329 nt of DNA from Escherichia coli (lineage in GTDB: Bacteria > Pseudomonadota > Gammaproteobacteria > Enterobacterales > Enterobacteriaceae), in the NCBI RefSeq assembly GCF_003334385.1, contig NZ_QOWN01000201.1. The stretch is one strand, 5' to 3'. The position numbers and the translations under genes are program-made. The first letter of the stretch is position 1, and each line of letters begins with the position of its first letter. Of the stretch, positions 1-329 are shown piece after piece. The notes below the pieces were generated by a model, which saw nothing but the letters and a program-made list of their open reading frames with translations, made no database searches and was not told where the DNA came from.

Positions 1-159
1 TCTGAAGGTTGTTTTGAAATTGGTGTCACTATCAGTAACCCTGTATTTACTGAAGATGCCATTAACAAGAGAAAACACGAACGGGAGTTATTAAATAAAA
101 TATGCATTCTTTCAATGCTGGCCCGTTTACGTCCGATACAAAAAGGATGTGCACAATGA
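1..159 (+). CDS. 3' portion of a small ORF (52 sense codons plus TGA stop; 5' end outside window); hypothetical protein, possibly a Kil-like prophage early-region peptide (tentative)
   Basis: Frame 1 is open from position 1 to the TGA at 157-159, while frame 3 carries stops (TGA 3, 15, 51; TAA 36, 63, 96) over the same stretch. Conceptual translation: SEGCFEIGVTISNPVFTEDAINKRKHERELLNKICILSMLARLRPIQKGCAQ*. The stop overlaps the downstream start (ATGA), which is typical of real coupled genes. The C-terminus is basic and amphipathic. The Kil-like call rests only on vague recollection of short basic helical Kil peptides and of small genes of this kind sitting beside DUF1482 genes in lambdoid prophages; no alignment was run. 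Confidence 0.55.
   Translation, partial: SEGCFEIGVTISNPVFTEDAINKRKHERELLNKICILSMLARLRPIQKGCAQ
143..147 (+). promoter_or_regulatory. Shine-Dalgarno (AAGGA) for the downstream ORF
   Basis: AAGGA at 143-147 sits 8 nt upstream of the ATG at 156, which is canonical spacing. It lies inside the last codons of the upstream ORF, as expected for coupled genes. Confidence 0.6.
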
Positions 160-329
160 ATACAGCATTTGCACTTGTTCTGACAGTTTTTCTTGTTTCC
201 GGAGAGCCAGTTGATATTGCAGTCAGTGTTCACAGGACAATGCAGGAGTGTGTGACTGCAGCAACCGAACAGAAAATTCCCGGTAACTGTTACCCGGTCG
301 ATAAAGTTATTCACCAGGATAATAACGAA
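156..329 (+). CDS. 5' portion of a DUF1482-family (YebW-like) small protein; continues beyond the 3' end of the window
   Basis: ATG at 156-158 is preceded by AGGA (144-147) with an 8-nt spacer, and frame 3 is open from 99 to 329 with no stop. Translation (58 codons): MNTAFALVLTVFLVSGEPVDIAVSVHRTMQECVTAATEQKIPGNCYPVDKVIHQDNNE. From memory, E. coli YebW (DUF1482) shares the pattern FALVL.V...G...DI.V.V..T...C.......I..G.C.P....I, including both cysteines (QEC and GNCYP here). The family call is recalled, not searched. Confidence 0.8.
   Translation, partial: MNTAFALVLTVFLVSGEPVDIAVSVHRTMQECVTAATEQKIPGNCYPVDKVIHQDNNE
218..260 (+). repeat. Inverted repeat TGCAGTCA (218-225) / TGACTGCA (253-260) with 27-nt spacer; potential mRNA stem-loop
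   Basis: Read directly: the two 8-mers are exact reverse complements. TGCAG occurs three times (218-222, 241-245, 257-261). Lies wholly within the downstream ORF; the large loop makes a stable hairpin uncertain. Confidence 0.35.
282..294. repeat. Perfect 13-bp palindrome GGTAAC-T-GTTACC (imperfectly extended to 279-297)
   Basis: Read directly: 282-287 GGTAAC, 288 T, 289-294 GTTACC are exact reverse complements. The flanks CCC/CGG extend the symmetry with one mismatch per side. It overlaps codons G-N-C-Y-P of the downstream ORF. The symmetry is certain; any function is unknown. Confidence 0.5.

Follow-up and report, generated by a model that had tools for sequence, protein, structure and literature searches.

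The window analysed here, a stretch of 329 nucleotides, comes from a Qin-like lambdoid prophage of Escherichia coli and spans the boundary between dicB and ydfD. Its identity with the corresponding part of the chromosome is 100% in E. coli ML35 and 96% in E. coli K-12 MG1655, and matches were obtained in 4001 of 5426 complete E. coli genomes as well as in eight deposited phages of Escherichia. All annotated records place the last part of dicB and the first part of the following gene here. The ATG of ydfD is located at 156–158, and the window ends before its reading frame does; the complete ML35 gene comprises 63 codons (L001 20156–20347). The features dealt with below are compiled in Table 1.

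Table 1. Genes and sequence features of the 329-nucleotide window at the dicB–ydfD junction.
Feature	Position	Strand	Description or basis
dicB 3' end (cell division inhibitor DicB), last 52 codons and TGA stop (157–159)	1..159	+	Translation; RefSeq annotation of the 100%-identical ML35 locus and of K-12
ydfD, first 58 codons (DUF1482)	156..329	+	Translation; RefSeq annotation; PF07358 on related proteins
Perfect 13-bp palindrome GGTAAC-T-GTTACC (GGTAACTGTTACC)	282..294	no strand	GGT AAC TGT TAC plus first C of CCG (G43 N44 C45 Y46 P47)
Extended imperfect palindrome CCCGGTAAC-T-GTTACCCGG	279..297	no strand	9+1+9, 8/9 pairs, 89% complementary
TGT codon of Cys45, second conserved DUF1482 cysteine	288..290	+	Protein alignments

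As a gene, this region is already known, being a member of the ydfD/DUF1482 family. RefSeq lists the product of the identical ML35 gene as 'DUF1482 family protein' and that of the K-12 allele as 'lysis protein YdfD'. All close relatives of the protein carry the precomputed Pfam assignment PF07358.17, and protein alignments revealed both C32 and C45 as well as the motif G-x-C-[YFW]-P, with C32 invariant and C45 nearly invariant across DUF1482. Gene order agrees with this assignment: in E. coli and E. albertii dicB is followed by a DUF1482 gene that overlaps it by 4 bases, and then by an exonuclease gene. The YdfD protein of K-12 is a lysis protein that binds IspG (PMC8835842); its N-terminal (residues 1–28) and C-terminal (residues 29–63) domains are both needed for lysis, and two well-conserved cysteines have been described in it (PMC8835842).

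In K-12, ydfD (b1576) of the cryptic prophage Qin is the last characterised gene of the dicBF operon, and gene order there (ydfABC, dicB, ydfD, exonuclease) is the same as at the window locus. The K-12 gene also contains the identical 13-mer, and its product is 92% identical to that of the window allele. The latter, which is of the ML35 type (WP_001090200.1), differs from K-12 YdfD by T3S, A6V, V33M, N57I, and P60S. The prophage of ML35 is largely complete, with ydfD located between ydfABC/dicB and an exonuclease-excisionase-integrase block that adjoins ompW; it is more complete than K-12 Qin, with intact exonuclease, excisionase, and integrase genes. At both loci the dicB stop and the ydfD start overlap as ATGA (window 156–159), an arrangement which suggests that translation of the lysis protein is coupled to that of the division inhibitor. 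According to the literature, co-expression of dicB prevents lysis by YdfD. A variant of the locus is found in strain 3059 (L004 1737–2904), where a truncated dicB fragment, a gene for a Rha-family regulator, and a second, intact dicB precede ydfD; in this strain the dicBF operon has acquired an insertion or a duplication. An unannotated antisense open reading frame of 184 amino acids that spans the window in ML35 (L001 19823–20377, minus strand) was considered as a further gene and rejected. It is interrupted in most homologues, the antisense open span having a median of 84 and a minimum of 34 codons among 103 unique homologous stretches, and is very likely spurious.

The feature of ydfD that drew attention is a short inverted repeat over the second conserved cysteine codon. 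An earlier reading of the window, made from the sequence alone, had described a perfect palindrome of 6+1+6 bases at positions 279–297. Such a palindrome does exist, at 282–294; the wider coordinates delimit a 9+1+9 extension which is not perfect, its sole mismatched pair being C281/C295. The overlap with the conserved Cys codon and with the peptide GNCYP that had been noted likewise holds in the ydfD frame, the centre of the palindrome, T288, being the first base of the Cys45 codon.

How unusual is a palindrome of this size? The sequence-only reading had roughly estimated that none would be expected by chance in 329 bp, an estimate which proved too strict, as 8–11% of randomised windows contain one. 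Specifically, 10.6% of 3000 dinucleotide-preserving shuffles of the window contained a perfect palindrome of at least 6+1+6, with an average of 0.11 per window; the proportion was 18.8% if centres of 0 or 1 base were accepted and 61% if spacers of 0–10 were. When synonymous codons were resampled according to local codon usage with both proteins kept, the corresponding values for the three criteria were 8.0%, 12.7%, and 56%. An expectation of 0.01 pertains to this exact 13-mer picked post hoc and not to any palindrome of that size.

The coding sequence itself accounts for part of the symmetry. With the degenerate sequence GGN AAY TGY TAY CCN, nine of 13 positions are fixed and two pairs out of six (G1-C13 and A4-T10) are given, and each of the remaining four pairs hangs on a single wobble base, in GGT, AAC, TGT, and TAC, respectively. 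Given GNCYP, the palindrome has a probability of 0.033 if codons are drawn by local usage and of 0.031 (1/32) if they are drawn uniformly. We found no difference between this case and the incidental palindromes that arise from partly self-complementary codons, and the evidence supports its inclusion in that category.

Other perfect inverted repeats with arms of 6–8 bases are present in the window at 32–53, 218–260, and 306–326. Those in dicB (TCAGTAA/TTACTGA, 32–38 and 47–53) and in the distal part of ydfD (GTTATT/AATAAC, 306–311 and 321–326) demonstrate that arms of 6–7 bases are common in this window. The third, located in the part of ydfD that encodes the N-terminal domain, consists of the 8-nt arms TGCAGTCA and TGACTGCA (218–225 and 253–260) separated by a 27-nt spacer; its arms are longer than those of the palindrome over Cys45, and it is probably incidental because the sequence there differs completely in other allele types.

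If the symmetry were itself under selection, it should persist in homologues that encode the same peptide. An earlier retrieval based on the YdfD protein of the window had yielded 80 viral-contig loci whose products were 97–100% identical to it and which were biased towards the palindrome. As such near-identical copies are useless for a test of synonymous sites, this set was replaced by one obtained with a degenerate DNA pattern: viral contigs were scanned with the fully degenerate back-translation of QKIPGNCYPVDK, which is unbiased at synonymous positions, and at least 120 loci with 119 usable gene copies were recovered. Among the matches listed, the palindromic spelling GGTAACTGTTACC occurred in 44 of the 119 copies (37%), GGCAACTGTTATC in 42, GGTAACTGTTATC in 22, GGGAACTGTTATC in six, GGTAACTGCTATC in four, and GGCAACTGCTATC in one. 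The non-palindromic copies specify the same amino acids by means of GGC or GGG, TAT or TGC. When identical genes were counted once, 27 of 76 unique genes among the matches listed carried the palindrome. The genes of strain AST85 and of E. albertii have TAT, or GGG together with TAT. Hence, GNCYP is kept while the synonymous sites vary freely, and the nucleotide-level conservation among homologues for which the sequence-only reading had proposed to look is not found.

Variation was not evenly distributed over the four wobble positions. Synonymous entropy was 1.17 bits for the G43 codon and 0.94 bits for that of Y46, which places these codons among the most variable synonymous sites of the 3' half of ydfD (76 unique genes among the matches listed). 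The two other wobbles vary little, N44 being encoded by AAC in 76 and C45 by TGT in 71 of the 76 unique genes among the matches listed. This invariance is not specific for the palindrome because many other codons of the 3' half (those of K40, K50, V51, I52, N57, E58, and P60) are equally invariant. When a neighbour-joining tree was calculated from 65 intact unique genes with the palindrome codons masked, the four critical third positions required 3.25 parsimony changes on average as compared with 2.93 at other third positions. Thus, conservation of nucleotides beyond what coding needs, as would be demanded of an operator, was not detected, be it in the proportion of unique genes with the palindrome (27 of 76 among the matches listed) or in the number of changes (3.25 versus 2.93).

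A special block of conserved nucleotides round the palindrome was likewise considered and rejected on the basis of a conservation profile of 103 unique 1-kb stretches. In this profile the region from dicB through ydfD to the downstream sequence has a majority fraction of 0.85–0.97, with lower values where ydfD encodes its variable N-terminus. No special peak was apparent at the palindrome: positions 270–314, which are partly fixed by the search pattern, did not exceed dicB or the downstream intergenic region.

As a separate observation, codons 50–52, 56–58, and 60 of ydfD (window 303–311 and 321–329, codon 60 lying past the window end) showed no third-position change in the 65 unique genes. 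This set includes the four-fold degenerate codons GTT (V51) and CCG (P60), and the neighbouring codons 43, 46, and 48 vary. Recombination of the 3' module, or a genealogy that is merely shallow, may be responsible for the invariant codons. The gene as a whole is mosaic. Its N-terminal half (codons 14–37; window about 195–266) exists in sharply different types, such as IAVSVHRTMQ, LVIDIYGSMK, AITGMYNSMK, and others, and codons 38–63 are nearly constant. In strain 3059, a divergent 5' half is joined to an ML35-type 3' half that includes the palindrome. Given that the N-terminal domain is the IspG-binding part of YdfD (PMC8835842), its allelic diversity may merit a look.

The distribution of the palindrome across the family follows that of one allele type. 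On the tree, the palindromic state required only two state changes; nearly all genes with it belong to the K-12-like 'IAVSVHRTMQ' allele group, in which no fewer than eight unique genes lack it. The peptide EQKIPGNCYPVDKVI shows little or no variation within the YdfD clade. In a close-alignment scan of species-representative genomes, YdfD of the QKIPGNCY type was found at one locus only, in Escherichia albertii. The clade of this type appears to be confined to Escherichia/Shigella, and more distant DUF1482 proteins exist elsewhere. These distant proteins read GTCF, GECF, GECY, NECW, GSCH, and the like (G[T/E/S]C[F/W]P), and because the residues differ the palindrome cannot be encoded there.

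Further copies of the palindrome nearby, the second check that had been proposed, were not encountered either. A search of 40 kb of ML35 round the site, with up to one mismatch allowed, returned a single match, and in 120 phage contigs (1.25 Mb) there was no exact copy outside ydfD and at most one per locus. The same limit of one exact copy per locus applied to all 207 loci compared (1.55 Mb, including the 1.25 Mb of unbiased phage contigs). As the 127 matches equal the 127 palindromic ydfD copies in 127 loci, all of these matches are within ydfD. Taken singly, the half-site GGTAAC is found 13 times and GTTACC 15 times in the 40 kb, numbers which are unremarkable.

These data bear directly on the possibility that a dimeric DNA-binding protein recognises the palindrome as a kind of operator or roadblock, specific to one lineage and located inside ydfD of the K-12/ML35-type allele only. 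Its dyad symmetry is perfect, with a centre-to-centre distance of 7 bp between the half-sites, and is what such a protein might recognise; the restriction of the palindromic state to a clade, rather than a scattered occurrence, would suit a function gained recently in one lineage. Short dyad-symmetric sequences are also typical of lambdoid operators, including those of DicA and DicC in Qin, which is the same prophage and in which they are analogous to OL/OR of lambda. The resemblance ends there. The known operators come in sets of three, are intergenic, and overlap promoters (PMC10448788); those of DicA and DicC are situated between dicA and dicC and between dicA and dicBp (PMC10448788). The palindrome in ydfD, by contrast, is single, intragenic, away from any promoter-like site, off-motif, and not conserved among homologues. 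It lies about 1.3–2 kb downstream of the known DicA/DicC operators, and the placement expected of an operator is lacking, as the window contains no promoter-like site. The DicC motif determined by ChIP-seq is TT[ACT]G...C[GAT]AA (PMC11430063), which GGTAACTGTTACC does not fit (DicA operators were compared by position only); the proposed comparison with known operator motifs thus gave no match. Nor is there the multiplicity of sites seen with operators, since no second copy was present in 40 kb with up to one mismatch or, as an exact copy outside ydfD, in 1.25 Mb. Moreover, some members of the same allele group do without the palindrome, and its occurrence is within chance. None of the papers found in the literature mentions a site within ydfD. 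We therefore consider a protein-binding site of this kind highly unlikely, and infer that none is present in the palindromic lineage.

A more specific version of this idea would be that a T-to-C change (TAT to TAC at codon 46) made a very young, lineage-specific 13-bp dyad which some dimeric host or prophage protein might now use in the K-12/ML35-type allele only. We would grant it an exceedingly small chance. If true, the site could for example act as a roadblock that tunes read-through from dicB/ydfD into exonuclease-xis-int, and would be a regulatory site embedded in a toxin gene; even then, it would be of modest interest.

Palindromes are typical targets of type II restriction enzymes, and a restriction-modification target, whether kept or avoided, was the other half of the interpretation favoured by the sequence-only reading. 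A similar specificity in E. coli is GGTNACC (Eco91I/BstEII type), but direct reading of the sequence showed GGTNACC to be absent from the 13-mer, and we know of no restriction enzyme that recognises the 13-mer GGTAACNGTTACC. The 19-mer contains the short sites GTNAC, CCSGG, and CCGG, each twice, which we take to be common and trivial. As there is a single site per prophage, with its presence varying among close relatives, there is no signal of selection in either direction, and the probability of a restriction-modification target is as good as negligible. The favoured interpretation as a whole, dimeric-protein site or restriction/modification target, thus founders on the free variation of synonymous sites in homologues with GNCYP and on the lack of other copies in the 40 kb of ML35 and the 1.25 Mb of phage contigs, an outcome which the sequence-only reading had itself named as a refutation.

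A role at the level of nucleic acid structure was also considered, whereby the repeat would fold into a hairpin, as RNA in the dicBF-ydfD transcript or as single-stranded DNA, and serve as a signal for processing, stability, or translation pausing. The statement that a loop of one nucleotide cannot fold is correct, and the best alternative hairpin (5-bp stem, 3-nt loop) does not surpass shuffled sequence. An interrupted 7-bp stem with a loop of 3 nt is possible in the extended repeat. However, the predicted RNA fold of 279–297 reaches only -5.3 kcal/mol (z = -0.36), and 63 of 200 shuffled sequences fold at least as well; the DNA fold has -3.1 kcal/mol (z = -0.38). In most homologues the stem is broken, GGC together with TAT disrupting two pairs, and no compensating change is seen. 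No T-run follows the repeat. A scan of the window for sigma-70-like promoters and intrinsic terminators detected neither, and an Rfam search of the window gave no match at E≤1. With no terminator-like site, no Rfam match, and a fold like that of shuffled sequence, the region does not look like a structured RNA or a terminator, and we regard a functional hairpin as extremely improbable.

As a functional DNA or RNA element, then, the palindrome is not a real feature but a by-product of coding together with chance codon choice. This was the fallback offered by the sequence-only reading, and it is supported here in a refined form: the peptide gives two of the six pairs, and four wobble choices provide the rest, in one allele lineage. 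We are highly confident that the palindrome has no function of its own and is the accidental spelling of a conserved Gly-Asn-Cys-Tyr-Pro in one ydfD allele lineage, where it is the peptide that selection keeps. Selection would act on the protein, namely on EQKIPGNCYPVDKVI within the C-terminal domain, and not on DNA symmetry, and all four of the wobble bases needed (in GGT, AAC, TGT, and TAC) come together in the K-12/ML35-type allele lineage only. Conservation of the peptide at the protein level is explained by the requirement of the C-terminal domain (residues 29–63) for lysis (PMC8835842).

For the biology of the prophage the palindrome is of little significance: it lies in the known dicB–ydfD locus, which about three quarters of the complete E. 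coli genomes possess, and bears no sign of selection. Its value is rather one of calibration, a perfect 6+1+6 palindrome being found by chance in roughly one in ten windows of ~330 bases. Given this chance rate and the existence of partly self-complementary peptides such as G-N-C-Y-P, palindromes of this type in coding regions should be flagged only if their wobble positions are conserved.
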